In this document: in pieces, positions 8,794-22,131 of the stretch
How positions within the stretch are numbered: the first letter of the stretch is position 1
Layout: every line of letters begins with the position of its first letter
NCBI GenBank assembly: GCA_016788165.1
Contig: JAEUTH010000021.1
Coordinates: 72,496 to 136,495 of the forward strand
Origin: Bacteroidia bacterium
GTDB lineage: Bacteria > Bacteroidota > Bacteroidia > AKYH767-A > OLB10
Reading direction: 5' to 3'
DNA: 64,000 nt
The notes under the pieces: generated by a model
Databases searched by the model: none
What the model saw: the letters and a program-made list of their open reading frames with translations, nothing else
What the model was told of the DNA's origin: nothing
Program-made: the position numbers and the translations under genes

Positions 8794-9594
8794 TTATAAA
8801 AGCTTTGGTTTGCTACATTTAATGGCATACATCATGGGTAACACACCTTGCAGGTTTTTTATCTGGTATTTCCCATTATCAATTTGCACGGTATTTTTAA
8901 AACAGTTGTAGTTGCTGTAGTCAAACTCGCTAAACTTTTCCAGTTTTAAGCCGTTATCAATAAGCGCAGTAATAATATCAGACAGGCTATGGTTCCATCC
9001 GATGTTAGTGGTTTTAATTACAGCATTTCTGTCGGCATAACTACCCAAATTAGTTTCAATAATTGGGTCAACGTTAAAGTAGGGGTATTGCAGCATTTTC
9101 ATTTCATTATCCAACATCCATAGCACCGGATGAAAATCAATAATTAAAAACGTACCCCCTGGTTTTAAACATTGTGCAACAACAGCAGCCCATTTATTTA
9201 AATCAGGCAACCAGCCAATAGTACCATAGGATGTATAAACAATATCAAAGGTTTTATTCAAATGCTTACACGTATCATACACGTTACAACAAATAAACTC
9301 GGCAGGTAAATTCAATTCTTCGGCTAAGGATTTGGCGTAAGCAATAGCCTGATCGGCAAAGTCAATACCTGTGCATTGTGCGCCTTTATGTTGCCATGAT
9401 AAGGTATCCTGTCCGAAATGACATTGTAAGTGGAGCAGCGATTTGCCATGCACATCACCAAGCCACATTTGTTCTGTATCGCAAAGTGAATTAAGCGTAA
9501 GTTTAAAAGTATCGTTTGCATAAAATGCGCTGTTTATGTTAACCTGAGTTAATGTATTCCAGTGATGCTGATTTTGTTTAAAAAAGTCTTCCAT
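8794..9594 (-). CDS. Class I SAM-dependent methyltransferase; start placed at ATG 9594 (ORF track shows a GTG extension to 9624)
   Basis: SAM-binding region VHGKSLLHLQCHFGQDTLSW...GIDFADQAI and motif LKPGGTFLIID. Confidence 0.8.
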   Translation of the reverse strand: MEDFFKQNQHHWNTLTQVNINSAFYANDTFKLTLNSLCDTEQMWLGDVHGKSLLHLQCHFGQDTLSWQHKGAQCTGIDFADQAIAYAKSLAEELNLPAEFICCNVYDTCKHLNKTFDIVYTSYGTIGWLPDLNKWAAVVAQCLKPGGTFLIIDFHPVLWMLDNEMKMLQYPYFNVDPIIETNLGSYADRNAVIKTTNIGWNHSLSDIITALIDNGLKLEKFSEFDYSNYNCFKNTVQIDNGKYQIKNLQGVLPMMYAIKCSKPKLL

Positions 9595-9702
9595 TATAAT
9601 TGATTCATAATTTTTTAAAAACACTTGTGCATTCGCTTCAGATAACCGTAAAACCTAAGGTTGTTTGGTTATTTTCGCAGCCACACAATAAACATATTTT
9701 AT

Positions 9703-11088
9703 ATGAAGTACGATGTTATAATTATAGGCAGTGGCCCGGGTGGTTACGTAGCAGCTATCAGAGCTTCGCAACTGGGTTTTAAAGTTGCTGTTGTAGAGCG
9801 CGAAAATTTAGGTGGCATTTGTTTAAATTGGGGATGCATACCTACAAAAGCATTATTAAAAAGTGCACAGGTTTTTGAATATTTAAATCATGCAGCAGAT
9901 TACGGTATTGAGGTAAATAATGGCAAAGCCGATTTTGCCAAAGTAATTGCACGCAGCCGTAGTGTTGCCGATGGTATGAGTAAAGGTGTTCAGTTTTTAA
10001 TGAAGAAGAATAAAATAGATGTAATTAATGGAGTTGGTAAACTTTTGGCAGGCAAAAAGGTAAGCGTAACCTTAGATGGTGCTGAAACCATTTATGAAGC
10101 CAATCACATTATTTTAGCAACCGGTGCACGCTCGCGCCAATTACCTAATATTAAGCAAGACGGTGTGAAGGTGTTTGGCTACCGCGAAGCAATGACATTG
10201 CCCAAGCAGCCTGCTTCATTGGTGGTAATTGGTAGTGGCGCAATTGGTAGCGAGTTTGCATATTTTTATAACGCCATGGGCACAAAGGTTACCATTGTAG
10301 AGTTTATGCCACGTATTGTGCCTGTAGAGGACGAAGAAGTATCGAAACAAATGGAACGCTCTTTTAAAAAACAAGGCATTAATATTTTTACCGATTCAAG
10401 TGTTGAGTCAGTTGATACATCGGGAGCCTTATGTAAGGTGCAGATTAAAACCAAAAAGGGTATGGAGGTGATTGAGGCCGAATCTGTATTGAGCGCTGCC
10501 GGTGTTGTTGCCAATATCGAAAACTTAGGTCTTGAAGAATTGGGCATTGTTACCGACAAAGGCAAGGTAGTGGTAAATGATTATTCTCAAACCAATATGC
10601 CCGGTATTTATGCAATTGGCGATATAACAAAAGGCCAGGCATTGGCACACGTTGCATCGGCAGAAGGTATTTTATGTGTCGAAAAAATTGCCGGCTTAGA
10701 TGTGCATCCTATTAACTACAACAATATACCCGGTTGTACCTATACCACACCCGAAATTGCATCAGTTGGTTATACCGAAGCTGCTGCAAAAGAAGCAGGC
10801 TATGAATTAAAAATTGGCAAATTCCCGTTTAGTGCATCGGGCAAAGCAAAAGCAGCAGGTGCTGCCGATGGTTTTGTAAAAGTAATTTACGATGCTAAAT
10901 ATGGCGAATTATTGGGCGCCCATTTAATAGGATATAATGTAACCGAAATGATTGCCGAAATAGTAGTAGCACGAAATTTAGAAACTACAGGCCATGAAAT
11001 ATTAAAATCAATTCATCCGCACCCAACCATTAGCGAAGCAATAATGGAGGCTACTGCTGCTGCTTACGGTGAGGTTATTCACATGTAA
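9703..11088 (+). CDS. lpdA: Dihydrolipoyl dehydrogenase (E3 component)
   Basis: MKYDVIIIGSGPGGYVAAIRASQLG FAD motif, redox-active disulfide GGICLNWGCIPTK, NAD motif VVIGSGAIGSEFA, C-terminal dimerisation HAHPT.SE. The ORF-track start at 9661 is a TTG extension. Confidence 0.95.
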   Translation: MKYDVIIIGSGPGGYVAAIRASQLGFKVAVVERENLGGICLNWGCIPTKALLKSAQVFEYLNHAADYGIEVNNGKADFAKVIARSRSVADGMSKGVQFLMKKNKIDVINGVGKLLAGKKVSVTLDGAETIYEANHIILATGARSRQLPNIKQDGVKVFGYREAMTLPKQPASLVVIGSGAIGSEFAYFYNAMGTKVTIVEFMPRIVPVEDEEVSKQMERSFKKQGINIFTDSSVESVDTSGALCKVQIKTKKGMEVIEAESVLSAAGVVANIENLGLEELGIVTDKGKVVVNDYSQTNMPGIYAIGDITKGQALAHVASAEGILCVEKIAGLDVHPINYNNIPGCTYTTPEIASVGYTEAAAKEAGYELKIGKFPFSASGKAKAAGAADGFVKVIYDAKYGELLGAHLIGYNVTEMIAEIVVARNLETTGHEILKSIHPHPTISEAIMEATAAAYGEVIHM

Positions 11089-11146
11089 TTGATTAAAAAA
11101 TAAATTTAATTAAAAACTGCTTTGCCCAAATGGTAATGCAGTTTTT

Positions 11147-12466
11147 TTATGATTTACCGCTAATAATAAATGTGGTACCAACACCAATAGTACTCGTTAC
11201 AGCTATGTTTAGTTGATGGTAATTGGCAATGGTTTTAACAATGGACAAACCCAAGCCATGACTATTGGCATCTTTCTGATGTAATCTGGTAAAACGATCG
11301 AATATAATGGCAATTTGCTCGGGCTCAATACCTAAACCAGTGTCGGAAATGGCAATTTCAAAATCATTATTAATTAATTTGCTGGTAATGGTTACGTTGC
11401 CTCCATGTTTATTGTATTTGAGGGCATTGATAAGCAAATTATTAAAAAGCATTTGTAACAATGAAGTATTGCTTTTTGCTAAAATAATTTGGTGTTCCAT
11501 ATCATTTATCATGGTAACTTCTTTATGTGCACAACGATCTTGCAGCTCTTCAATAATTTCGCTAATAAGGTCGTTTAAATTGGTAACCTCACTTTTGTCA
11601 AACTGTTCGTTTTCTACTTTTGATATTGTTAGCAATGCTTTAATAATTCGACTTAACCGGCTCAATATTTTTTGTGAGTCAATAAGTTTTAAGGCGGTAT
11701 CGTGATCGGTTTTTTGATCGGTGATTATATTTTCGAAACGGTTTTGTAATATCGATATGGGTGTTTGTAATTCGTGTGATACATTGGCAATAAATGCTTT
11801 TTCATGATTAAAGTCGTCTTTAATTTTAAGCATTAAGTTTTCGAAAGCCTGATCGAGATAGGTAAACTCAGCAGTAGAACTATTAACCGGATTCGATTTG
11901 AATTTTATAGGGTTATCAACTGCTTTAAGCTTGTTTAGTATTTTATTAAAAGGCAAAAGCAACATACCGATAAAGCCAAAGTCGCTTGCAATACTTATTA
12001 AAACCACCACCACCATTAACCAAATTGTAAATCGTGTAAAGGCCTTATCTAATTGTTCGATAGTGCTCAACCCTTCGCCTATATTGAGTGCATACATTTG
12101 ATTATCGTACATAAAACTGCGGTGTAGTACCCGGTGTTTTAATTCTTCTGTATCTAAAATCCAGGTTTCGATATCGATGCTATCAACGGTACTAAACGTA
12201 CTTGCATCGGTTATGGGTTCAATTTTTATAAATTCCTCTTTAAAAATTGTATGATCTGCATAGCTACAATCTTGCTCATGTTTAATATCATCTAAACCAC
12301 CTTGTTTCACCATCGACATAGCTCTGTCGGCATTGGCGCGTAAACGGTTATCAATATGACTAAACACAACCCTTTCAACAATAACCGGAAGGAGCAAACC
12401 AAATGCTGCAATAATTAATGCTTTAGAAATGGCATTATAAATAGCAAACTTTACTTTTAAGCGCAT
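11147..12466 (-). CDS. Membrane sensor histidine kinase (2 TM, HisKA + HATPase_c)
   Basis: H-box SHELQTPISIL. N/G boxes NLLINALKYNKHGG...ISDTGLGI...GLGLSIV. Two hydrophobic segments flank a periplasmic region. Confidence 0.9.
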   Translation of the reverse strand: MRLKVKFAIYNAISKALIIAAFGLLLPVIVERVVFSHIDNRLRANADRAMSMVKQGGLDDIKHEQDCSYADHTIFKEEFIKIEPITDASTFSTVDSIDIETWILDTEELKHRVLHRSFMYDNQMYALNIGEGLSTIEQLDKAFTRFTIWLMVVVVLISIASDFGFIGMLLLPFNKILNKLKAVDNPIKFKSNPVNSSTAEFTYLDQAFENLMLKIKDDFNHEKAFIANVSHELQTPISILQNRFENIITDQKTDHDTALKLIDSQKILSRLSRIIKALLTISKVENEQFDKSEVTNLNDLISEIIEELQDRCAHKEVTMINDMEHQIILAKSNTSLLQMLFNNLLINALKYNKHGGNVTITSKLINNDFEIAISDTGLGIEPEQIAIIFDRFTRLHQKDANSHGLGLSIVKTIANYHQLNIAVTSTIGVGTTFIISGKS

Positions 12467-12533
12467 GGCAATAAATTAAATAAAGCATGCAAAATTAAAA
12501 GCATTGCATGATAGTGCCATGAAACGCCTGATT

Positions 12534-12938
12534 TTATATGACATTGGTATGTTTTAAATGTGTTACCAAATCGTCAATTGAAAGTGGTTTTAAAAATAAG
12601 GCTTTTACCAAACTGCTGGCCTTAGCCCTGCTGTTATCTGTAAAATTTAGTGATGATGATACCATTACAATATGTATCTTATCAACTATTGGTTTTGGTA
12701 AGTTTTCGAATGCAGCTAAAAATTCAAAACCATCCATACCGGGCATTTGAATATCCAGTAAAATCAAATCAGGGCATGTTTGCTCATTACATGTTTTAAG
12801 GTACTCAATGGCTTCGATTGGATTAATGTATTTTAGAACAGAATGTGAAAAGCCTCGGATATTTATTAGTTTTTCGAGTAAAAATAAATCGATGCCATTG
12901 TCATCAATAAGCATTACTTGAATTCGTTTGTCCATCAT
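12534..12938 (-). CDS. Single-domain response regulator (receiver only, no output domain)
   Basis: VMLIDDN...LILLDIQMPGMDGFEF...IVMVSSS receiver motifs; 134 aa. Start overlaps the stop of the upstream REC-kinase gene. Confidence 0.85.
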   Translation of the reverse strand: MMDKRIQVMLIDDNGIDLFLLEKLINIRGFSHSVLKYINPIEAIEYLKTCNEQTCPDLILLDIQMPGMDGFEFLAAFENLPKPIVDKIHIVMVSSSLNFTDNSRAKASSLVKALFLKPLSIDDLVTHLKHTNVI

Positions 12939-14026
12939 TTTGGATTTTTATTAGGAATAAAAATATTGAATGTCGTGCCTATTTCACTGGTTGATTTAAC
13001 TTTTATAGAACCGTTAATTTTTTCTAATGCTTCTTTTACAATGAAAAGACCTATACCTGAACCTTGCTTTTTACTGGTGGTTGGTGTTCTGAAAAATAGT
13101 TGAAATATATTTTCGATATAGATTTGTGGAATACCAATACCATTGTCGCTTATTTCGATTTCTGCGCCTTGTAAATTTGTATTTACAGTAACGGTAACAC
13201 AATGCTTGGGTGTATTCGGGTTGTTATATTTAATGGCATTAGATATCAGATTATTAAGTATAACCCTTATGCGAAAATCGTCTGAAATAAAATTTGTGGT
13301 TTGATTTATGGTAACATTAAATACAACACTCGGTTCCAGATTGCTTAATGATTCTACACAGTCGCTTACTAAGATTTTAAAATCAATTACATCATTAATT
13401 TCTTCCAGGCGCGAGTTTTGATAATATTCAATAATGCGTTTGGTGTAATTATCAAGTTTTAAAATACTGCTTTCAATAACCTTAAAGTATTCTTCGGCTA
13501 CCAACATTTCAGGCTCCATTCTGGCATATTGAACTATACCTAAAACTGACATTAATGGCGAGCGTAAGTCATGCGATGCACTATAAACAAACCTGTTAAG
13601 TTCATCGTTTGTTTTCTCGAGCTGTGCATTTTTTTCGGCTAATTGTATGCGCGATCGGTATAAATCAGCACAATATTCCAGGGTTAATGTAAACTTATCC
13701 CAATCCCATGGTTTTTGTATGTATTTACTAATTTGTCCGGTATTAATGGCTTCAATTACGGTATCAATATCCGTTTGGCCAGTTATAAGCAGCCTGATAG
13801 TATTTGGATAGGTTTCGATAGTTTGTGCCAAAAACTGAATACCGGTACAACCGGGCATTCGTTGGTCGGAAATAATAATACCCATTTCATTGTTTTCAAT
13901 AATCTGCAAAGCTTCTTGGGCACTTATTGCTGTATATACTTTATACAATTTGCGGAACATTGATTTAAATGAAATCAGGTTGTTTTCCTCGTCATCAACA
14001 TAAAGTACTTTAAGTTGGTTTTCCAT
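12935..14026 (-). CDS. Receiver-fused histidine kinase (REC-HisKA-HATPase) with no sensor domain; phosphorelay intermediate
   Basis: N-terminal receiver VLYVDDEENNL...ISDQRMPGCTG...LITGQTD...KPWD, then H-box SASHDLRSPL and ATPase motifs NLISNAIKYN...DNGIGI...GSGIGL. Confidence 0.9.
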   Translation of the reverse strand: MENQLKVLYVDDEENNLISFKSMFRKLYKVYTAISAQEALQIIENNEMGIIISDQRMPGCTGIQFLAQTIETYPNTIRLLITGQTDIDTVIEAINTGQISKYIQKPWDWDKFTLTLEYCADLYRSRIQLAEKNAQLEKTNDELNRFVYSASHDLRSPLMSVLGIVQYARMEPEMLVAEEYFKVIESSILKLDNYTKRIIEYYQNSRLEEINDVIDFKILVSDCVESLSNLEPSVVFNVTINQTTNFISDDFRIRVILNNLISNAIKYNNPNTPKHCVTVTVNTNLQGAEIEISDNGIGIPQIYIENIFQLFFRTPTTSKKQGSGIGLFIVKEALEKINGSIKVKSTSEIGTTFNIFIPNKNPK

Positions 14027-14052
14027 ACTGTACCTGTAAATTATTGCGTCTT

Positions 14053-16194
14053 TTATCTTTTTAATCGTAACGGTAAATATAACATTACTTCACTGCCTTG
14101 ATTGGGTGCCGATTCAATTTCAATCCTTCCGTGGTGGCTTTCGATAATTGAATATACAATAGACATTCCCAAACCGGTACCTTCGCCCACGTCTTTGGTT
14201 GTAAAAAAGGGTTCGAAAATTTTAGACTTCACTTTTTCATCCATCCCTACACCGGTGTCTGCTACGGTAATTTTAATAAAATCATTATCTAATATAGATG
14301 TAATGGTGAGTACATGATTTTTTTGCTGATTGTTTTTTTCGATAGCTTGTAGTGCGTTATTAAGTACATTCATAAACACCTGATTAAGTTTACCCGGGTA
14401 ACATTCGATATTGGGCAATACGTTCAGATTTTTAATAAGTGTTAGGCTTTTTGGCATTGAGTTTCGTAATAAAACCAGCGTTGATTCTATTCCTTCATTA
14501 AGGTTCGCTTCTTTAATATCACTTTCATCTAAACGAGAGAAATTTTTTAAGCCTTTTACAATTTCTGCTGTGCGTTTGGCTCCATCTTCAATGCCATTAA
14601 TTAAAATATTTATTTCATGTTTTAAGTAATCGAAATCAATTTCTTTTTTATAAGCTTCAATGTCAGTTTTAGATTGGTCAAAGTCAGCGGCATTATTTAA
14701 TGCATCGTATTTTTCAATTATCAATAAAATATCGTTTATATCCAGTTGTAATGGTCTGATGTTGGCGCTTACAAAATTAATTGGGTTGTTTATTTCATGC
14801 GCTATACCAGCAGTTAGTTGCCCTAATGATGCCATTTTTTCGGCATTAACTAATTGGGCTTGTGCATCTTTTAAATTTTTTAAAGTAATACCCAGTTCTG
14901 TATTGGCAATTTGGAGTTCTTGCGTTCGTTCGTTTACTTTTTGTTCAAGCATTAGATTCTGCTCAGAAATCAGTTTTTCCTTTTCGCGTAAAGCTGCCAT
15001 GGTTTCAGCTTGCGATTCCTCTTTTTCCTTTTTTAAAATATTAATCCGGTCGGCTAATGCAAATGAAAGCAGCACCACTTCGGCAGCCGAACCTAATGGC
15101 ATCATGTAAAGTGTATAATTATTGTAAGGTAGTATGCTAAAATCTTTTAATACATAAACCGTTACACCTATCAGGAAAACAGTCCATGCTAATAAAAAAT
15201 AGCCGGCAGGTCTAAATCCCTTTTTATAAATAAGGTAGCCAACATAAAGCATGTACAGCGATACCAGCGTTGCAATTAATTCGATTAAGATAAAACTAAC
15301 TTTAAACAGACCGAATAATGAAAATGCCGATGCGCATACGTATGCAAACATGAAAATTATAAACCCTTTATTATGGCTTGGATAAAAGAATTTTACATGC
15401 AAAAATTCACGCATAAAAACCATGCTGGCAATGCCAACTAAAGTTGGGAAAATGAATGAACTATAAACAGCCAATAATGGGATATTGGGCCATAGTACCA
15501 TAAAGGTATATCCATGAATACTTGCTTGCGTAAGCAGTACGGTGGCTAAATAAATTACATAGTATAAATATACTTTATCTTTTATTGTTACGTATAAGAA
15601 GGCATTGTAGAAAAACATTACCAGCATTATACCGATGTATATGCCAACGGCTAAATTTCTTTTTTTGTTTGATTCGCTAATCCGATCCGGAGTACCAATA
15701 AATATGGGTATTTGGATGTTTTCCCGGGCACTTACTTGTAGCAGTATGGTAGTTATTTTATGCGAAGGTAACTGCAAGTTGAAGATATAATCCGGATCGC
15801 GTATTACCCTGTGGTTAAAACTATTATACTCGCCTGAGTGTGCTTCAGAAAAAATGGTGTCATCATTAATCTGATAGCAACTAATTTTATCTAAACCCGG
15901 ATGTGAAACCTGTAACAAAAAATCACCTACGTTGGTTTGATTGGAAATTTTTAACTTAAGCCAGAAAACAGAATTGCTTATGCCGAAGTTGGGTACATCG
16001 GTGGTAATTCTGTTAAAGTTATTAAGTTGTTTTACTTCATTAATTGTTAGTTTTTGAGTTTTATCTTCGTAGTAAACAACTTGGTTGCTAACACTTATTT
16101 TGTAATCGCTGCTAACTATAGGAATTATTTGGGCCCGGGTTATACCGGCCAACAGCAGCAAACTTATTAGTGTAAATTGTTTAATTAAAAACAC
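14053..16194 (-). CDS. 7TMR-DISM sensor histidine kinase (7TMR-DISMED2 extracellular domain, 7TM, coiled coil, HisKA, HATPase)
   Basis: Signal peptide plus beta-rich extracytoplasmic domain (FWLKLKISNQT...), seven consecutive TM helices, H-box AHEINNPINFV, N/G boxes MNVLNNALQA...DTGVGM...GTGLGMSIV. Confidence 0.9.
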   Translation of the reverse strand: MFLIKQFTLISLLLLAGITRAQIIPIVSSDYKISVSNQVVYYEDKTQKLTINEVKQLNNFNRITTDVPNFGISNSVFWLKLKISNQTNVGDFLLQVSHPGLDKISCYQINDDTIFSEAHSGEYNSFNHRVIRDPDYIFNLQLPSHKITTILLQVSARENIQIPIFIGTPDRISESNKKRNLAVGIYIGIMLVMFFYNAFLYVTIKDKVYLYYVIYLATVLLTQASIHGYTFMVLWPNIPLLAVYSSFIFPTLVGIASMVFMREFLHVKFFYPSHNKGFIIFMFAYVCASAFSLFGLFKVSFILIELIATLVSLYMLYVGYLIYKKGFRPAGYFLLAWTVFLIGVTVYVLKDFSILPYNNYTLYMMPLGSAAEVVLLSFALADRINILKKEKEESQAETMAALREKEKLISEQNLMLEQKVNERTQELQIANTELGITLKNLKDAQAQLVNAEKMASLGQLTAGIAHEINNPINFVSANIRPLQLDINDILLIIEKYDALNNAADFDQSKTDIEAYKKEIDFDYLKHEINILINGIEDGAKRTAEIVKGLKNFSRLDESDIKEANLNEGIESTLVLLRNSMPKSLTLIKNLNVLPNIECYPGKLNQVFMNVLNNALQAIEKNNQQKNHVLTITSILDNDFIKITVADTGVGMDEKVKSKIFEPFFTTKDVGEGTGLGMSIVYSIIESHHGRIEIESAPNQGSEVMLYLPLRLKR

Positions 16195-16196
16195 AG

Positions 16197-16880
16197 TTAA
16201 TTGGGCAAAAACAGTTGGTAATTTATTTCAATAGAGCCCTTAGCGCCCATTTCAGTATATTTTTGATTCGGGCTGTTTCGCAAGCTTAACATGCGTTCGC
16301 GGTCATAGGGTTGTGAGGTGCCCAAATCTTTGGCATTTAAAATTCCTAATACCCGCGCAATATAGTTTTCGTTTGGATAAACAAATTGACCGTTGTCGCC
16401 TAACGAATCATCAACCACAAAACCAACACGCCTGAACATAGGCATGGTATAATCGGCACAAATGCCCATTAATGTTTTGCATTTAATTTGATTAACAATA
16501 CTGATGCCTGCACGGGTTAGTAATAAACTTAAACCTTTGCCAGCAACTACTTTGGCATTCCAAAGAGCGCAAAGTTCGCCTACACCTGTATTGATATATC
16601 CATTAACAATCTGATGTATGTTGGGGTCCATTTTTCCAATTGCTTTTTCAACGGGTAGCATATTAATGCCATCGGCAATTTGTACTCTTATGCCGCCCAC
16701 CAAAACGCCATCATCGCGTTCGGCAACAATGCCGTAAACGCAATTCCATGTCATCCATTCTTGGTTATTGGAAGTTATATTTGTTATGCCATAGTCTTTT
16801 AAAACGTTTACATGGCCTTCTAAATATTTAGCACTGGTTTCAGTATCGGTGGGGGCATGAAAAATTCTGAATCTGTACAT
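16197..16880 (-). CDS. GNAT-fold acyltransferase-like protein (function unresolved; acetyltransferase versus N-acyl-amino-acid / autoinducer-synthase-like)
   Basis: Acyl-CoA-binding-like motif LWNAKVVAGKGLSLLL. Size (227 aa) and secondary-structure pattern fit GNAT. Start lies 1 nt after the upstream gene stop. Confidence 0.5.
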   Translation of the reverse strand: MYRFRIFHAPTDTETSAKYLEGHVNVLKDYGITNITSNNQEWMTWNCVYGIVAERDDGVLVGGIRVQIADGINMLPVEKAIGKMDPNIHQIVNGYINTGVGELCALWNAKVVAGKGLSLLLTRAGISIVNQIKCKTLMGICADYTMPMFRRVGFVVDDSLGDNGQFVYPNENYIARVLGILNAKDLGTSQPYDRERMLSLRNSPNQKYTEMGAKGSIEINYQLFLPN

Positions 16881-16881
16881 T

Positions 16882-19131
16882 TTAAATCATAGTAAAACTG
16901 TTTTCTAAAGGTTTTCGTAGTGCAATAGTTGTAGGTGTTTGTGCATACATAACTCTAAACAAAAATGTATCTCTTAATGCAGGAAGAGACTCAAATATAT
17001 GCTCAAATTTAATTTGTTGTTTGTTTAGTTCGGCAATTTCGTTTTCGGAAAAGTGATGTATGCCTTGCAGTTTATTAAAATAAAATACCGGTGCACTAAT
17101 GGGTTGCAGGTGTAAACCTTGTGCGATAGCTGCCAGCCAAAAGCGTTGCACGCAAGCACCTGCATCAAGTACATTTAAATTTTTATCAACACTTAGCAGT
17201 GCTATTGCTGATGCACTTTTTATAGCATTAGATGTAATTTTTTTTAGTGCATCACCGCCTTTCCATTCGCTAACTTTTTCGATAACGGCCGGGTCGGAAG
17301 CTACTTTGAGGCCCGTAAAATCTATTTGGCTAAGTTCTAAAGTAGCTATATCTAATCCATCGCATGTTTTTTTTGCTTGTACGGTATCCCATCTAATTTC
17401 TTTATTAAAAAATTCGTCATGCCCATAAGGATTTAAAAACCTGATTTTTTCAACCGAAGCAACAATATCAGCCAGTGCAAAAATACTATCCTTATCATGT
17501 TTCCAACGTATGGTTGCAGGTTTGGCAACAATATCTAAATTGGTGGTTATGGTTGCATTAATGGGATGCCCGTTGCCGTGTTTGCGATTGGTGCAGCGTA
17601 CTTTAATTGCATTAAACAAAATTGAGTTGCCTGATTCTTTTGTTTTTGAAAAAGTTAATGCTGCTAAACAAAACGGATGTGATAAATGTTTAATTTCAAC
17701 GGCATAACCATCCATACCAGCTGTAAGTGATATATTTTCAATAGCAGCCCCCAAAGCCAGATGCGCTAAGTTGCCATCGGTATCGCTCCAGCAATAAGAC
17801 AGTGTGGCATTGTGTATTACAAATAGTACATCGTTTTTAAATACCCAATGCCATGGTTGGTTATTACCGGCTGACGGAGCTTTAATTGCAAATTGCAACC
17901 AACTTTCAATTCGGTTACCTATAACATCTTTACCTTTTATTTGATAATTAAGTGCAAAGTTTATTGCATCTTCCAATTTAAAAGTAGGGTGCTTTTTAAA
18001 TGCATTATCAGGTTTGGTTTCGGGTTGGTTCCCAATAATATTTTCAACATCAACATAATACCGGCCCGAGCTGTTAAACTGTCCCAATAAAACCCTTCTT
18101 GCAACATCGGCAGTTATGCCGCCACCCATTGTAACTGCACTGGCAAGCTGTGGCCATGTATTTATGCTTTGTTCAATTTCAATCATAGATGCTTTAAGTC
18201 TGACACTTGACGTATCAATACCTAAAACATCCATCATATAAGGTATTTTATCTTCCGTTGTTTTTAGTTGTTTTAGTTTTTCTATATTCAAATGTTCAAC
18301 CAGACCATGTAAAATGGGGCGCTCAGGTTCTAAATCAAATCGTTCAACATCAACCATACACTTATCGCTTGCTTCCATAAGTACGGGTATGCCATGTTTA
18401 CGCGCGGCATATCGGCTAATAATTTTTATATCAAAACCATCCGACTCTTCAATCAATAAGTCCATTTTACCGCCATTATAAAAAAATGCTTCTAAATTGT
18501 TTTCAGTAATTCCTTCAGGATAACATGTGATATTTATGTAAGGATCTATTTCGGCAATTTCGCGTGCAACGCTATATACTTTTGGTAAACCAATATTATG
18601 TATGCCGGTTCGTATGCGGTTTAAATTATTAAGTTCTAATGTGTCGAAATCGGCTAAATGTATATGGTTACTTATACGCTCCATAGCTATGGTAACCGCT
18701 ACCGATTGACCTACTGATAAGCCGATAATACCTATCTTTTTTTTCTGAAGGATAAGCTGTTCTTCCGGTGTAATTTTATATTGATTGCGGCTGGTGCGTA
18801 CTTTAATAAACTCTGCTTCGGGCAAGGTTCTTACCAAACGTTTACTCCAGGGATAATAAATCCACATACCATAATTATTCATAGTAAATGGATGGATGTA
18901 AGCTTCGGCTTTTTGCTTTAAAATAGCATCTGCAAACTTTTGCGAAGGATTACAGGTTTTTATAAATTCTTTTAATTGTTCAAACAAAGTATCAAACTTT
19001 TCAACTTGATTCTGTGTTGTAATTTGTTCAATTTCTTTTTCGTCAGATGCACAGCTAAATATTATTGGTTTGTAATTGTTAAAAGCACTTTGCATGTTTA
19101 TGTCAAGGTGATTGGAAATGTGTAAACTCAT
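16882..19131 (-). CDS. Rv1355c-family protein: E1-like (ThiF/MoeB-type) adenylation domain fused to a double nitroreductase (SagB-type, FMN) domain
   Basis: E1 Rossmann start KKIGIIGLSVGQSVAVTIAM plus ADFDTLELNNLNRI (ThiF D.D.VE.SNLNRQ motif) at about aa 130-175. Nitroreductase signatures APSAGNNQPWHWVF (about aa 418) and a second half VRCTNRKHG (about aa 510). Confidence 0.8.
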   Translation of the reverse strand: MSLHISNHLDINMQSAFNNYKPIIFSCASDEKEIEQITTQNQVEKFDTLFEQLKEFIKTCNPSQKFADAILKQKAEAYIHPFTMNNYGMWIYYPWSKRLVRTLPEAEFIKVRTSRNQYKITPEEQLILQKKKIGIIGLSVGQSVAVTIAMERISNHIHLADFDTLELNNLNRIRTGIHNIGLPKVYSVAREIAEIDPYINITCYPEGITENNLEAFFYNGGKMDLLIEESDGFDIKIISRYAARKHGIPVLMEASDKCMVDVERFDLEPERPILHGLVEHLNIEKLKQLKTTEDKIPYMMDVLGIDTSSVRLKASMIEIEQSINTWPQLASAVTMGGGITADVARRVLLGQFNSSGRYYVDVENIIGNQPETKPDNAFKKHPTFKLEDAINFALNYQIKGKDVIGNRIESWLQFAIKAPSAGNNQPWHWVFKNDVLFVIHNATLSYCWSDTDGNLAHLALGAAIENISLTAGMDGYAVEIKHLSHPFCLAALTFSKTKESGNSILFNAIKVRCTNRKHGNGHPINATITTNLDIVAKPATIRWKHDKDSIFALADIVASVEKIRFLNPYGHDEFFNKEIRWDTVQAKKTCDGLDIATLELSQIDFTGLKVASDPAVIEKVSEWKGGDALKKITSNAIKSASAIALLSVDKNLNVLDAGACVQRFWLAAIAQGLHLQPISAPVFYFNKLQGIHHFSENEIAELNKQQIKFEHIFESLPALRDTFLFRVMYAQTPTTIALRKPLENSFTMI

Positions 19132-19338
19132 GAATTAAAAATAGGGGAATGAGCAGGCAAGTTTAGTTTAATTTTATAATTTTGTAGCAACTTATCATTT
19201 TGATAGTTTGGTGTTATTTTGATTCTCAATTTTAATTTTTTTCAGTTTCTTTTTGATTGCCTGCAGGGTTTGATTATTTGTTCTGTTAGTTTTCAATTTG
19301 CAAATGTTACATAAGCTGTAATTAATACACTTTTTAGT

Positions 19339-19806
19339 ATGGAAGATTTGTCGATAATTAAGGTTCTTTATGTTGATGACGAAGCGCATAATTTAAATGC
19401 GTTTAAAGCAAGTTTTAGGCGTGTATTTACTGTGTTTATTGCACTTTCGGCCGATGAAGCCAAGCAAATAATGTCCGAAAATGAGATACACGTTTTAATT
19501 ACCGATCAACGTATGCCTGGTACACCGGGTACTGAATTATTAGCCTATGCCGTAAAAGATAAGCCCGACCAGATACGGATTTTACTTACCGGTTTTAGCG
19601 ATATGGATGCCTTACAAGATGCCGTAAATCGCGGCCACATTTATCGCTACTTACAAAAACCCTGGGATGATGAAATTTTGCGTCAAACCATTATTGAAGC
19701 CTACCAGATTTATGCCTTAAAACTGGAACGCGAAGCATTAACTCAAAAGCTACAACAAAACAACGAGCAACTTGAATTTTATTTAAGACATAAATTATTG
19801 TCTTAG
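19339..19806 (+). CDS. Single-domain response regulator (receiver only), divergent from the operon above; its receiver is paralogous to that of the REC-kinase
   Basis: VLYVDDEAHNL...ITDQRMPGTPG...LLTGFSD...YLQKPWD aligns almost motif-for-motif with the receiver of the 12935..14026 protein. Confidence 0.85.
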   Translation: MEDLSIIKVLYVDDEAHNLNAFKASFRRVFTVFIALSADEAKQIMSENEIHVLITDQRMPGTPGTELLAYAVKDKPDQIRILLTGFSDMDALQDAVNRGHIYRYLQKPWDDEILRQTIIEAYQIYALKLEREALTQKLQQNNEQLEFYLRHKLLS

Positions 19807-19914
19807 TAAAATTTTAGGCTTAAATAGCCAATTATTGTGTGTAAATAAGCAAAACAGGTATTATCCTTTTTTGAAATAAAATTACTTTTGGCAGCTCAAA
19901 ATAAATAAGATTGT

Positions 19915-22131
19915 ATGCACACAACTGTTGATGACGCCAAAGCATTAGGCTTATTACCCGAAGAGTTCGATAAAATAACTGAAATTTTAGGCCGCAATCC
20001 TAATTTTACCGAGCTAAGCATTTATTCAGTAATGTGGAGCGAGCATTGCTCATATAAAAATTCAATTACCTGGCTAAAAACTTTACCCAAAGACGGGCCT
20101 CACATGTTAGCCAAAGCAGGCGAAGAGAATGCGGGCTTAGTTGCCATTGATGATGAAACCGGTTGCGCATTTAAAATTGAGTCACATAATCATCCTTCGG
20201 CTATCGAACCCTATCAAGGTGCTGCTACCGGTGTGGGTGGCATTAATCGCGATATATTTACAATGGGTGCACGACCCATTGCACAATTAAACTCACTGCG
20301 TTTTGGTAATATTAACTCCGACCGTACTAAATGGTTGGTTAAAGGTGTAGTTAAAGGAATTGGCGATTATGGCAATGCCTTTGGCATACCCACCGTTGGT
20401 GGCGAAGTTTACTTTGACGATTGCTATAACATCAACATCTTGGTAAATGCCATGAGTGCCGGTATTGTTAAGAAAAACAAAGTGGTTTCGGCCACATCTT
20501 ATGGCGTAGGTAACCCGGTATTTATTGTTGGTTCGGCAACAGGCAAAGACGGAATTCATGGTGCAGCTTTTGCCTCAAAAAATATTACCGAAGACTCGGC
20601 CGATGATTTGCCATCAGTACAGGTTGGCGACCCGTTTCAGGAAAAACTTTTAATGGAAGCATCGTTAGAATTAATTGATACCGGTGCCATCATTGGTATG
20701 CAGGATATGGGTGCAGCCGGCATCATTTGTTCGAATAGCGAGATGAGTGCAAAGGGCAAGCATGGTATGCGTATTGATTTAGACAAGGTACCCACGCGCC
20801 AAAAAAACATGAAAGATTGGGAGATTTTACTAAGCGAATCGCAAGAGCGTATGTTGGTAGTGGCCAAAAAAGGCATGGAAGAAACCGTTTATAAAGTTTT
20901 CGATAAATGGGATTTAAACTGTACACAGATTGGCGAAGTTACGGCTGATGGTTATCTTGAATATTTTATGAATGGTGTACAGGTAGCGTATGTACCGGCC
21001 CAATCGCTGGTATTAGGTGGTGGCGCACCGGTTTATACACGCACCTACACAGCCCCGGTTTATTTAAAAGATATTGAGGCTTACAATATTGATAATGTAA
21101 CCATACCTGAAGATTTAAAACAAGTAGCATTATTTTTAATCAATCATCCAAACATAGCCAGCAAACGATGGGTATATACGCAGTACGATAGCATGGTTGG
21201 TACCGTTAACAGAAGTACCAATACCTGTACCGATGCTGCCATTGTTAATTTAAAAGATTCGAAAAAAGCGTTGGCATTAACCGTTGACTGTAACTCACGT
21301 TATGTATTTGCGAATCCCGAAACGGGTTGTGCAATTGCCGTTGCCGAAGCAGCCCGTAATATAACCTGCAGTGGTGGCCAACCCAGTGCTATTACCAATT
21401 GCTTAAACTTTGGTAACCCCTACGACCCCGAAGCTTATTGGCAATTTGTACATGCAATTAAAGGAATGGGTAAAGCTTGTTTAAAGTTTAATACACCCGT
21501 TACCGGTGGTAATGTTAGTTTTTACAATCAAAGCGAAGTCGAAAACCATACCGTACCGGTTTTTCCTACGCCAACCATTGGCATGTTGGGAATTTTAGCT
21601 GATAAAAACCGCACAATGACCTATAATTTTAAGCAAGCAGGTCATCATATTTATTTGCTAGGTTCTTCACAAAATTGTATCAGCTCATCGCAATATCTGG
21701 CACATTTTCATCAAATAAAATTTTCGCCTGCCCCTTATTTTAGTTTAGATGAAGAGTATGACTTACATCAACTAATTAAGCAACTTATAAATGCCGATTT
21801 AATTCAATCGGCACACGATTGCTCAGAAGGTGGTTTGTGGGTTGCCTTAGCCGAATCGGGCTTTAATAATCAATTAGGATTTAACATTATTACTGATGCA
21901 GATATCCGTAAAGATGCATTTTTGTTTGGCGAAGCACAGGGTAGGGTAGTAGTTTCGATAAGCCCTGAACAATTTGATTTGTTTATAGAAACAGTTGTTG
22001 CAAGTGGCATTGATTTTAGCCACTTAGGTGACGTTACAACAGGCGAAATTAAAATTGATGGCAACTATTGGACTTCAATTGTTGATTTACAAAACCAATA
22101 CGATACAGCCATTGAAAAAGCCTTGTTGTAA
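19915..22131 (+). CDS. purL: Phosphoribosylformylglycinamidine synthase subunit PurL
   Basis: LSIYSVMWSEHCSYKNS, ESHNHPSAIEPYQGAATGVGGI.RD and duplicated AIRS-like domains; 738 aa. Confidence 0.95.
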   Translation: MHTTVDDAKALGLLPEEFDKITEILGRNPNFTELSIYSVMWSEHCSYKNSITWLKTLPKDGPHMLAKAGEENAGLVAIDDETGCAFKIESHNHPSAIEPYQGAATGVGGINRDIFTMGARPIAQLNSLRFGNINSDRTKWLVKGVVKGIGDYGNAFGIPTVGGEVYFDDCYNINILVNAMSAGIVKKNKVVSATSYGVGNPVFIVGSATGKDGIHGAAFASKNITEDSADDLPSVQVGDPFQEKLLMEASLELIDTGAIIGMQDMGAAGIICSNSEMSAKGKHGMRIDLDKVPTRQKNMKDWEILLSESQERMLVVAKKGMEETVYKVFDKWDLNCTQIGEVTADGYLEYFMNGVQVAYVPAQSLVLGGGAPVYTRTYTAPVYLKDIEAYNIDNVTIPEDLKQVALFLINHPNIASKRWVYTQYDSMVGTVNRSTNTCTDAAIVNLKDSKKALALTVDCNSRYVFANPETGCAIAVAEAARNITCSGGQPSAITNCLNFGNPYDPEAYWQFVHAIKGMGKACLKFNTPVTGGNVSFYNQSEVENHTVPVFPTPTIGMLGILADKNRTMTYNFKQAGHHIYLLGSSQNCISSSQYLAHFHQIKFSPAPYFSLDEEYDLHQLIKQLINADLIQSAHDCSEGGLWVALAESGFNNQLGFNIITDADIRKDAFLFGEAQGRVVVSISPEQFDLFIETVVASGIDFSHLGDVTTGEIKIDGNYWTSIVDLQNQYDTAIEKALL

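Follow-up and report, generated by a model that had tools for sequence, protein, structure and literature searches.

We found that a compact group of genes, conserved among related genomes and located in the window (the whole 64,000-nucleotide stretch of Bacteroidia DNA that was analysed), joins two predicted enzymes of N-acyl oxazolone synthesis to a 7TMR-DISM sensor kinase and to receiver proteins devoid of output domains, and this conserved cassette suggests that oxazolone lipids act as signals sensed by the cassette itself. In the explanation that we consider best, with a probability of about 45%, the cassette makes a lipid derived from an N-acyl amino acid and most likely perceives it, so that synthase and receptor would form an autoinducer-like system. 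An earlier note on this DNA had described the block as a module for signal production and perception, and we infer that this is still its best reading.

The ORF list reproduced the coordinates of all seven genes first described, six on the minus strand and one divergent on the plus strand. The minus-strand genes encode, in order of transcription, a 749-aa ThiF-oxidase fusion (16882-19131), a 227-aa protein with a GNAT fold, here called p227 (16197-16880), a 713-aa 7TMR-DISM sensor histidine kinase with a GTG start (14053-16194), a 363-aa REC-HisKA-HATPase protein, here called REC-kinase (12935-14026), a 134-aa receiver-only protein, REC134 (12534-12938), and a 439-aa sensor kinase, HK439 (11147-12466); the plus-strand gene encodes a 155-aa stand-alone receiver, REC155 (19339-19806), and is separated from the others by a 207-nt intergenic region (19132-19338). 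The junctions from the fusion to HK439 (1 nt, 2 nt, 26 nt, a 4-nt overlap of the REC134 start with the REC-kinase stop, and 67 nt) and the domain content of the ORFs (Pfam and NCBIfam) were as reported earlier. No HTH, GGDEF, CheB or other output domain was detected with Pfam and NCBIfam in the two-component proteins, as the earlier note had stated, and domain annotation with the same libraries disclosed no hidden DNA-binding regulator in the block. The enzyme pair, the 7TMR-DISM kinase and the output-less receivers are a real, conserved and tightly packed unit.

In the 749-aa protein, an adenylating domain of the ThiF/E1-like type at the N-terminus and a flavin-dependent oxidase of the nitroreductase superfamily at the C-terminus are joined in a single chain (Pfam ThiF at residues 119-351 and Nitroreductase at 624-681; an Acg-family FMN oxidoreductase model covers 412-682). 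It scored 707.5 bits, against a cutoff of 476, with the NCBIfam equivalog NF005901, "Rv1355c family", residues 15-745 aligning with positions 6-717 of the 722-position profile, which places it with the TrzS/OxzB group of ThiF-flavin oxidase oxazolone synthetases. Alignment with three actinobacterial Rv1355c-family proteins showed the GxGxxG segment (134-141), ADFD (160-163), E229/D231 and the oxidase residues R512, R516 and R564 to be invariant; no invariant Gln was seen among these four proteins. In TrzS of M. smegmatis the ATP-site Asp is D217 and the FMN-site Arg and Gln are R540 and Q651, residues that are not placed exactly in this alignment with three family members. From these sequence matches, the protein is predicted to be an oxazolone synthetase made up of a ThiF-like ATP-dependent cyclase and an FMN-dependent oxidase. 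The characterised member of the family acts on N-acyl tryptophan (PMC12856293). The gene was present in 71 of 71 loci, p227 adjoining it in every one.

For p227 no Pfam match was obtained and no curated family threshold was reached; Pfam PF21926 (FeeM) gave no match even at E = 1, and nine of 68 p227 relatives gave FeeM matches below threshold (best E 2.4e-4, 21 bits against a cutoff of 27). Its profile also found nothing significant by sequence among PDB chains, for which fold comparison alone was informative. The structure model has the GNAT fold of the AHL-synthase-like branch, with FeeM as the best structural match and AHL synthases next, the same structural neighbours as reported for TyzA (PMC10404671). 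In addition, hhalign aligned the p227 profile with a 252-aa protein, itself uncharacterised, that is encoded beside an Rv1355c-family gene of Rhodococcus qingshengii (probability 91.4%, E 9e-7, 167 columns). A ThiF-p227 fusion protein exists; the profile gave only a weak match (probability 40%) to the N-terminal part of a GNAT-like-ThiF protein from Kitasatospora, and no recognisable TrzA-like neighbour was found at two actinobacterial plasmid loci (L087 and L090). The p227 family is separate and undescribed, with about 590 clusters at 50% identity. Judged from its modelled fold, p227 is predicted to be the counterpart of OxzA/TrzA, N-acylating an amino acid.

The enzyme pair corresponds to the OxzAB/TrzAS N-acyl oxazolone pathway, characterised from 2020 to 2025 (bioRxiv 10.1101/2020.06.11.147165; PMC10404671; PMC12856293), so that the product class becomes predictable, namely an oxazolone formed from an N-acyl amino acid by cyclisation and desaturation, instead of the modified peptide that the earlier note had entertained. 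Its statement that no characterised system has this composition does not hold for the enzyme pair but appears to hold for the coupling to a kinase: our literature search found no paper that ties oxazolone or N-acyl amino acid genes to 7TMR-DISM receptors or histidine kinases, and this coupling is what appears to be new. The match of the fusion to the Rv1355c-family model is a likeness to OxzAB of Pseudoalteromonas rubra, TrzAS of M. tuberculosis (Rv1356c-Rv1355c) and TyzACB; moreover, the M. tuberculosis pair also adjoins signalling genes, those of c-di-GMP turnover (PMC12856293), and a Rhodococcus plasmid pair adjoins a gene for a GGDEF protein. In contrast to OxzAB/TrzAS, however, the genes stand in the opposite order, the synthetase lying upstream; the acyltransferase is too divergent for any curated model; the host belongs to Bacteroidota, a phylum other than the Pseudomonadota, Actinomycetota and Planctomycetota for which the pathway is on record (PMC12479983); some relatives of the cassette lack the oxidase or the whole ThiF gene; and translational coupling links the two enzymes to a 7TMR-DISM kinase network that is absent from the published descriptions found, those of TyzACB included. 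Oxazolones are AHL-like, labile compounds of unknown role (PMC12856293; bioRxiv 10.1101/2020.06.11.147165), and the physiological role that they play in bacteria is, in the words of the TrzAS authors, "a major unresolved question" (PMC12856293).

The proposed receptor of the cassette is the 713-aa kinase, in which a signal/anchor segment is followed by a periplasmic DISMED2 domain, a 7TM bundle, a coiled coil, a DHp domain and a catalytic domain, with TM segments predicted. Pfam matched 7TMR-DISMED2 (2.6e-28), 7TMR-DISM_7TM (3.5e-50) and HATPase_c (4e-23) above cutoffs and HisKA in part, and 75 orthologues conserve the H-box (AHEINNP) as well as the N, G1, F and G2 boxes. Its architecture recalls RetS and LadS of Pseudomonas aeruginosa, in which DISMED2 and a 7TM bundle likewise feed a histidine kinase, but those proteins are hybrids with C-terminal receivers and are not encoded beside a small-molecule synthase gene. 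RetS works by protein-protein contact with another kinase, not via a DNA-binding regulator, and the input of LadS is Ca2+. The known 7TMR-DISM inputs are glycans, catecholamines or Ca2+, not lipids, a point against the main reading.

We found that the tie between acyltransferase and receptor was the most persistent feature of the locus. Among 80 related genome loci with enough flanking sequence (denominators vary by gene), six families, those of the cassette, were conserved and no others, any further family being found in no more than 19 of the 80; in orthologues, too, the genes were separated by short junctions or overlapped. The synteny check proposed in the earlier note thus returned a neighbourhood conserved in related loci and in distant clades. 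The 7TMR-DISM gene, 2 nt from p227 here, directly followed p227 in 72 of 73 close loci, and in distant clades, where the stand-alone p227 is 27-40% identical, a 7TMR-DISM protein was encoded directly downstream of it in 9 of 9 cases, with an RpfG-type stand-alone receiver nearby, usually divergent. The adjacency persists in relatives that lack the oxidase domain (L085, L096 and L074), in one where the ThiF gene is wholly missing (L095) and in one where a GAF-containing transmitter replaces the plain kinase (L092), so that the invariant pair consists of the acyltransferase and the receptor module. Three multi-domain p227 fusions, with ThiF, TIR and LRR partners, had no 7TMR-DISM neighbour. Covariation, analysed in an exploratory manner over 42 loci with partial Mantel statistics from which shared phylogeny is incompletely removed, was highest with the 7TM region (p227 0.49, oxidase domain 0.46) and lower with DISMED2 (0.23 and 0.28, respectively); p227 covaried less with its partner enzyme than with the 7TM region.

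On the response side, the kinase core covaried most with REC155 (partial Mantel 0.68 over the same 42 loci), and REC155 distances covaried most strongly with the kinase core (r 0.82). REC155, in which Pfam recognises Response_reg only, was divergent in at least 64 of 68 loci, is also present in distant clades and conserves D56, T84 and K107; its cognate kinase is probably the 7TMR-DISM protein. The closest NCBIfam match of REC155 is to the first 139 positions of the NosR REC+HD-GYP family (152 bits), and both REC155 and the receiver of the REC-kinase matched receivers of REC+HD-GYP regulators best. In the AF2 model the last helix of REC155 runs on as a 44-residue helix, the tail of which is invariant (NEQLEFxLRxKLLS). 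The REC-kinase has REC, HisKA and HATPase_c domains (Pfam), with D54 and the H-box SHDLRSP conserved; no TM segments were predicted, and the protein is soluble. Its receiver and linker are 39% identical to REC155, from which the phospho-His segment is absent; by sequence, then, this receiver is a paralogue of REC155, and the kinase forms a second tier, one that is accessory to the core, being present in 59 of 71 loci. REC134, likewise Response_reg only, conserves D62 and K117 and was found in 52 of 69 loci, nearly always directly after the REC-kinase, of which it is the probable substrate. The phospho-acceptor His or Asp is conserved in all four signalling proteins of the cassette. To speak of a four-protein phosphorelay, as was done at first, is nevertheless too strong, because Pfam and NCBIfam detected no HPt or Spo0B-type phosphotransfer step in any of the seven proteins and the second His belongs to the H-box of a complete kinase; the arrangement is a two-tier kinase cascade.

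The conserved unit is also smaller than the six-gene operon initially proposed. HK439 had no counterpart beside the cassette in any of the 80 loci, and the unit therefore excludes it; furthermore, a Bacteroidetes-type -7 motif, TAATTTTG (12497-12490), precedes this gene. The motif, for which the background across the window is about 0.7 per kb per strand, lies on the minus strand in the 67-nt gap (12467-12533) together with a 7-bp hairpin (12510-12486), and the gap probably marks the edge of the conserved unit. HK439, a classical sensor kinase with two predicted TM segments, HisKA and HATPase_c, is PorY-like but below threshold (NF052314, 241.7 bits against a cutoff of 350; NCBIfam); only in this genome does it adjoin the cassette on the same strand, and the two are unrelated. 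The flanking purL-like, dihydrolipoyl-dehydrogenase-like and methyltransferase genes were rejected as members, none being conserved beside the cassette. REC155 and the enzyme-kinase operon are presumably both transcribed from promoters in the 207-nt region, which is AT-rich. A scan of this region for the Bacteroidetes -7 motif located TAnnTTTG at 19177 on the plus strand and none on the operon strand, and the small ORFs in it are AT-rich and of low complexity, none being credible. A k-mer search of 66 divergent intergenic regions returned only AT-rich or promoter-like words and no conserved operator, which counts against the main reading. Scans for sigma-70 promoters and intrinsic terminators gave 35 and 8 sites, with no excess over shuffled sequences and hence no information on signals inside the block (Bacteroidota promoters differ from this type), and no Rfam RNA family was matched within 10900-20100.

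A synthase gene followed by that of a membrane kinase is the hallmark of several quorum-sensing cassettes. In LuxM/LuxN, AinS/AinR and CqsA/CqsS of Vibrio and LqsA/LqsS/LqsR of Legionella, the synthase gene adjoins that of a polytopic membrane kinase, often upstream of it and in one operon; kinases of the LuxN, AinR, CqsS and LqsS type bind a lipophilic acylated signal in the transmembrane region, and the cognate regulator LqsR has no DNA-binding domain. The same coupling was found here at the level of the genes. It differs from the Vibrio and Legionella cassettes in using GNAT and ThiF-oxidase chemistry, not that of LuxM or CqsA, in having a 7TMR-DISM receptor and an extra soluble REC-kinase tier, and in lacking an HPt relay such as Vibrio LuxU. 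In the RpfF/RpfC/RpfG system of Xanthomonas (DSF), the synthase of a fatty-acid-derived signal is clustered with a membrane kinase and a regulator free of DNA-binding domains, and the receivers described here are of the RpfG type and similarly without DNA-binding output. Unlike RpfG, however, REC155 has no HD-GYP domain and ends in the single long helix of its AF2 model, and the kinase, unlike RpfC, is not a hybrid with REC and HPt.

According to the main reading, p227 would N-acylate an amino acid, by analogy probably an aromatic one, from acyl-CoA or acyl-ACP, and the ThiF-oxidase would adenylate the carboxylate, cyclise the compound to an oxazolone with ATP and desaturate it with FMN and O2; the enzyme assignment is backed by tested homology, and from it we infer the chemistry. 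Either the product, which is lipophilic and prone to hydrolysis, or the N-acyl compound that precedes it would reach the envelope, where the 7TMR-DISM kinase, translated together with the enzymes, may sense it, probably through its 7TM bundle. The kinase would phosphorylate the two paralogous RpfG-type receivers, REC155 and that of the REC-kinase, and the REC-kinase would then phosphorylate REC134, pairings to which gene order, conserved phospho-sites and covariation point. The output would be non-transcriptional, through protein-protein contacts of the receiver-only proteins, chiefly the invariant C-terminal helix of REC155. Further points count against this reading: actinobacterial tryptazolones were mainly intracellular (PMC12856293), a cassette with no DNA-binding protein has no obvious autoinduction loop, p227 falls short of every curated family threshold, some shared phylogeny is left in the covariation, and the three p227 fusions have no 7TMR-DISM neighbour. 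More tentatively, oxazolones or their N-acyl precursors may be the autoinducers of a cell-cell or self-signalling system, not recognised before, in Bacteroidota such as Pedobacter, Chitinophagaceae, Cytophagaceae and Sporocytophaga, received by the 7TM bundle of a 7TMR-DISM protein and answered by receiver-only proteins in place of transcription factors.

A rather unlikely alternative, though the strongest of the rivals, is that the 7TMR-DISM kinase responds to something outside the cell or in the envelope, such as a glycan, a cation or membrane stress, and that the receivers tune the enzymes or other targets post-translationally; the N-acyl oxazolone would then be an effector, either a stress-protective membrane lipid or an antimicrobial, and not the ligand. 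No part of the cassette evolves faster than the DISMED2 region (mean distance 1.51 among the loci), as expected for adaptation to an environmental ligand; DISMED2 domains have a fold of the carbohydrate-binding type, and mucin glycans and norepinephrine are reported as inputs of RetS. In addition, antibiotics induce oxazolone production in proteobacteria, and oxidative-stress sensitivity is seen in tyz mutants (bioRxiv 10.1101/2020.06.11.147165; PMC10404671; PMC12856293), and N-acyl tyrosine derivatives can be antimicrobial (PMC12856293). However, because enzymes and kinase share a transcript and the cassette encodes no DNA-binding regulator, any such control could only be post-translational, of which we saw no sign, and an external cue leaves unexplained both the acyltransferase-receptor adjacency that survives loss of ThiF or oxidase and change of transmitter, and the closer covariation of p227 with the 7TM region than with its partner enzyme.

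The adjacency and covariation data would suit a homeostatic monitor just as well, an improbable reading in which the 7TM bundle gauges the level of product in the inner membrane and balances synthesis against toxicity or supply, as feedback within a single cell instead of signalling between cells; the product would then be a membrane constituent or a reactive acyl donor, azlactones being able to acylate nucleophiles. Tryptazolones accumulate inside cells (PMC12856293), and the ThiF-only variants mentioned above would make a saturated, highly reactive oxazolone, but no feedback effector is encoded in the cassette. This reading and the autoinducer reading, which sequence by itself does not separate, share the receptor-ligand step and differ in where the ligand acts.

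That the enzymes modify a peptide or protein, as an E1-like adenylase with an FMN dehydrogenase (akin to azole RiPP pathways, in which such pairs occur) or as an E1-based defence or conjugation system, with the two-component genes regulating or sensing the modified product, is very improbable: the PADLOC matches, which might seem to favour it, were weak and generic to E1-E2 (best 38 bits), no YcaO, E2, JAB or ubiquitin-like gene is present, junctions of 1-26 nt and the low-complexity ORFs of the 207-nt region leave no room for a precursor gene, the fusion passes an equivalog whose characterised member uses N-acyl tryptophan (PMC12856293), and p227 folds like an N-acyl amino acid synthase. A defence system and a RiPP or precursor-peptide pathway were accordingly rejected as candidates.

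The autoinducer-like reading, if true, would give bacterial oxazolones a first physiological role, 7TMR-DISM receptors, most of which have no known signal, a first lipid ligand class, and a phylum without LuxI-type synthases a native acyl-signal system; if one of the rivals is right, the cassette is still the first regulatory context for the oxazolone pathway. It offers a concrete, testable answer on the role of oxazolones from a fourth phylum, in which the acyltransferase is almost never found apart from a dedicated seven-transmembrane receptor, and, because the response pathway ends in receiver-only proteins, identifying what REC155 acts on could bring a non-transcriptional output to light. 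The cassette was found in soil and freshwater Bacteroidota, including the cultured strains Pedobacter steynii DSM 19110, P. duraquae DSM 19034, Pedobacter sp. V48 and Nemorincola caseinilytica JCM 32105.

All coordinates in the earlier note were reproduced by the ORF table: on the minus strand, six genes extend from 19131 down to 11147, separated by gaps of 1 nt, 2 nt and 26 nt, a 4-nt overlap and a gap of 67 nt, and a divergent gene occupies 19339-19806 on the plus strand. The domain content claimed for the block was borne out by Pfam and NCBIfam. Specifically, the 749-aa protein (ThiF-oxidase, 16882-19131) combines a ThiF with a nitroreductase domain; the 713-aa protein (14053-16194) is a 7TMR-DISMED2/7TM/HisKA/HATPase kinase (7TMR-DISM kinase); the 363-aa protein (12935-14026) is a REC-HisKA-HATPase kinase (REC-kinase); the 134-aa protein (REC134, 12534-12938) and the divergently encoded 155-aa protein (REC155) are receiver-only; and the 439-aa protein (11147-12466) is a kinase with two predicted TM segments. 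HTH, GGDEF, HD-GYP, CheB and other output domains were absent from all block proteins in both databases, as had been proposed. HPt domains were likewise not found in these proteins, so that a two-tier kinase cascade fits better than the phosphorelay named in the note. The 227-aa protein (p227, 16197-16880) had no Pfam or NCBIfam match, and its proposed GNAT fold therefore needed separate testing.

Scanning of a p227 alignment against one genome per species (185,579 species) revealed 405 encoded relatives, and the loci of the best 80 were fetched, from Pedobacter, Chitinophagaceae, Flavipsychrobacter, Nemorincola, Sporocytophaga, Cytophagaceae and Flavobacteriales MAGs. By tblastn mapping and all-against-all ORF clustering, exactly six gene families were kept around p227 in these best 80 of the 405. 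Counted over loci with enough flank, the ThiF-oxidase was present in 71/71, the 7TMR-DISM kinase in 72/73, the divergent 155-aa receiver in at least 64 of 68, the REC-kinase in 59 of 71 and REC134 in 52 of 69; the next commonest neighbour family occurred at only 19 of the 80 loci, and the 439-aa kinase, a purL-like gene and the other window flanks were conserved in none. The six-gene operon of the earlier note is thus a tight conserved unit from which the 439-aa kinase, a neighbour and not a member, has to be removed; this boundary is drawn from the family counts and from the 67-nt gap (12467-12533), which holds a hairpin and a Bacteroidetes-type -7 promoter motif. In the conserved unit, REC155 is divergent from ThiF-oxidase, p227 and the 7TMR-DISM kinase, behind which the REC-kinase and REC134 usually lie.

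Several variants of the cassette were observed. Pedobacter has two tandem 155-aa receiver paralogues, not one, upstream of the enzyme operon (about 6400-7600 in L008, L017, L020-L023, L027, L028, L030, L036, L037, L048, L049, L051, L058, L061 and L070). At L065, L069, L078 (6500-13400) and L071 the cassette is rearranged, with all genes on one strand: the REC-kinase precedes ThiF-oxidase, and a receiver resembling REC155 comes after the 7TMR-DISM kinase. In a Chitinophagaceae MAG (L029, 2239-5844), ThiF-oxidase and p227 are about 3.6 kb apart, suggesting an insertion into an otherwise tight junction, and two tandem p227 paralogues precede a single 7TMR-DISM kinase in one MAG (L057, 9234-10684), the upstream one sharing 36% identity with the window protein; two acylated products may here share one receptor. 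Typical Bacteroidota cassettes in MAGs labelled Candidatus Saccharibacteria and Burkholderiales (L003, L053) are probably on mis-binned contigs. The 439-aa kinase resembles the T9SS kinase PorY but, with 241.7 bits, stays under the cutoff of 350; it has no adjacent partner regulator, as its downstream neighbour is convergent.

The 749-aa protein clears the NCBI full-length equivalog model of the Rv1355c family with 707.5 bits (cutoff 476). Rv1355c is TrzS, now a characterised enzyme whose partner TrzA (Rv1356c) performs the N-acylation (PMC12856293), and the same logic is found in OxzAB of Pseudoalteromonas rubra (bioRxiv 10.1101/2020.06.11.147165) and TyzACB of M. tuberculosis (PMC10404671). 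When the window protein was aligned with three Bacteroidota orthologues and with three Rv1355c-family proteins of actinobacteria, the nucleotide-binding GxGxxG, ADFD and the E229/D231 'ECD' motif were invariant, as were the oxidase-domain arginines R512, R516 and R564; the published catalytic residues are D217, R540 and Q651 in M. smegmatis numbering. These homology tests place the window protein among the OxzB/TrzS-family synthetases.

For p227, an AlphaFold model with 34 homologues as input was confident (pLDDT 88.6, pTM 0.89). The family is marginally GNAT-like in sequence, with weak Acetyltransf_1 matches in 29 and weak FeeM matches in 9 of 68 diverse relatives; the window protein matched neither. 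By hhalign, the profile of the family aligned at 91% probability (E 9e-7) with an uncharacterised 252-aa protein encoded on a plasmid of Rhodococcus qingshengii, and a natural ThiF-p227 fusion was found (P0248; L091, 6409-8307). Homology tests show p227 to be a NAS-fold acyltransferase; its family is separate, previously undescribed and made up of about 590 clusters at 50% identity. Because of the confident model, the weak GNAT and FeeM matches, the Rhodococcus profile alignment and the fusion, we read p227 as the putative counterpart of OxzA/TrzA. On the Rhodococcus plasmid (pdjl-6-4; L089, 1482-5630), an Rv1355c-family gene has as neighbours a GGDEF gene and the divergent gene for the p227-like 252-aa protein, which recalls how c-di-GMP genes flank trzAS in M. 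tuberculosis; a tie between this pathway and signalling genes may be general. The p227 domain is also fused to TIR (P0203; L098, 269-1981) and to leucine-rich repeats (P0186; L099, 1670-3658), suggesting a second, unrelated use of the fold, possibly in conflict systems.

Homology tests also showed that the 7TMR-DISM kinase, the REC-kinase and both receivers are intact and that their linkage is tight and conserved. Orthologues of the 7TMR-DISM kinase keep its H-box (AHEINNP) as well as its N, G1, F and G2 boxes. Also conserved across orthologues are D54 and the H-box SHDLRSP in the REC-kinase and the receiver phospho-sites D56 (REC155) and D62 (REC134). REC155 homologues, nearly all exactly 155 aa and 66-88% identical, have a receiver of the RpfG/NosR type, which is usually coupled to HD-GYP or another enzymatic output. 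Up to the H-box, REC155 shares 39% identity with the REC-kinase receiver and linker. In its model the last receiver helix runs on as one 44-residue helix, and its C-terminal 14 residues (NEQLEFxLRxKLLS), invariant across homologues, align with the REC-kinase region around the H-box, the phospho-His segment being deleted. To judge from the alignment, this tail resembles a kinase dimerisation helix cut down to a His-less stub, and it is a putative docking element.

Gene contexts were compared for twelve distant representatives of p227 that share 27-40% identity with the window protein. A 7TMR-DISM protein (26-43% identical to the window kinase) directly follows p227 in 9/9 that stand alone; the neighbour is absent at the other three, all multi-domain fusions (ThiF-p227, TIR-p227 and LRR-p227). 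The adjacency is kept at loci whose ThiF protein has no oxidase domain (L085/L086, L096 and, in a complete genome, L074), at one with no ThiF gene between the divergent receiver and p227 (L095, 7001-11311), and at one where the receptor has a GAF domain after the 7TM bundle and no plain kinase core (L092). Since it outlasts changes of enzyme and transmitter, the stable pair is the acyltransferase and the receptor module, mostly with a divergent 155-aa receiver upstream. The ThiF-only proteins, of about 370 aa without a flavin-oxidase domain (L085/L086, L096, L074 at 8889-9998, and L091), and the ThiF-less variant should stop at a saturated oxazolone or at the N-acyl amino acid, so that signal chemistry may differ among lineages.

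We infer that p227 would make an N-acyl amino acid, which the fusion enzyme would cyclise and desaturate to an oxazolone, and that the co-translated receptor would sense either this lipophilic compound or its precursor, the probable site being the 7TM bundle. Phosphate would then pass to REC155 and to the receiver of the REC-kinase, and from the REC-kinase to REC134, with output through protein-protein contacts. This signal-and-receptor reading is plausible, at a probability of roughly 0.45. The interpretation of the earlier note is thereby supported in part and sharpened; the enzyme identity is well supported. In exploratory comparisons of pairwise distance matrices over 42 loci, in which partial Mantel tests leave some shared ancestry in place, the kinase core and REC155 showed the strongest covariation (r 0.82, partial 0.68), which would fit a cognate pair. 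The 7TM region was the best partner of p227 (partial Mantel 0.49) and of the oxidase domain (0.46); values were lower for DISMED2 (p227 0.23, oxidase domain 0.28) and between p227 and the oxidase domain (0.20). Such a pattern is expected of ligand-receptor co-adaptation, and is kept as a lead only because of the residual ancestry. Alternatively, the kinase may sense an outside cue and the lipid may be an effector; the inputs known for 7TMR-DISM receptors are glycans, catecholamines and Ca2+. The receptor may also gauge how much of the product made by its own cell is in the membrane. Action of the enzymes on a peptide is unlikely, as no precursor gene, YcaO or E2 was found at the locus.

A synthase gene followed by a polytopic sensor kinase gene is the arrangement of luxMN, ainSR, cqsAS and the Legionella lqs cluster; the cassette shares this gene order, and its RpfG-type receiver recalls the DSF system. 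What is new here is a known biosynthetic pair in a synthase-receptor arrangement, with an unusual output lacking transcription factors; the enzyme chemistry itself is already known in kind. Full-text literature searches found no link of this oxazolone pathway to histidine kinases or 7TMR-DISM receptors. The combination of NAS, ThiF and nitroreductase is known from Pseudomonadota, Actinomycetota and Planctomycetota (PMC12479983), and Bacteroidota would be the fourth phylum. The TrzAS authors regard the physiological role of oxazolones as a major unresolved question and point to their resemblance to AHLs and to the neighbouring c-di-GMP genes (PMC12856293); with the cassette present in cultured Pedobacter strains, that question becomes directly testable. 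In addition, a Kitasatospora sp. NBC_00070 plasmid (L088, 4233-9219) and Streptomyces plasmids (H13-H15) encode a 616-aa 'ThiF family adenylyltransferase', the ThiF part of which is 42% identical to the window enzyme, closer than Rv1355c-family proteins, and the N-terminal region of which faintly resembles GNAT proteins. The next gene encodes a ketoacyl-ACP synthase III and another one nearby a LuxR-type regulator, and this locus may represent a related acyl-signal pathway in actinomycetes.
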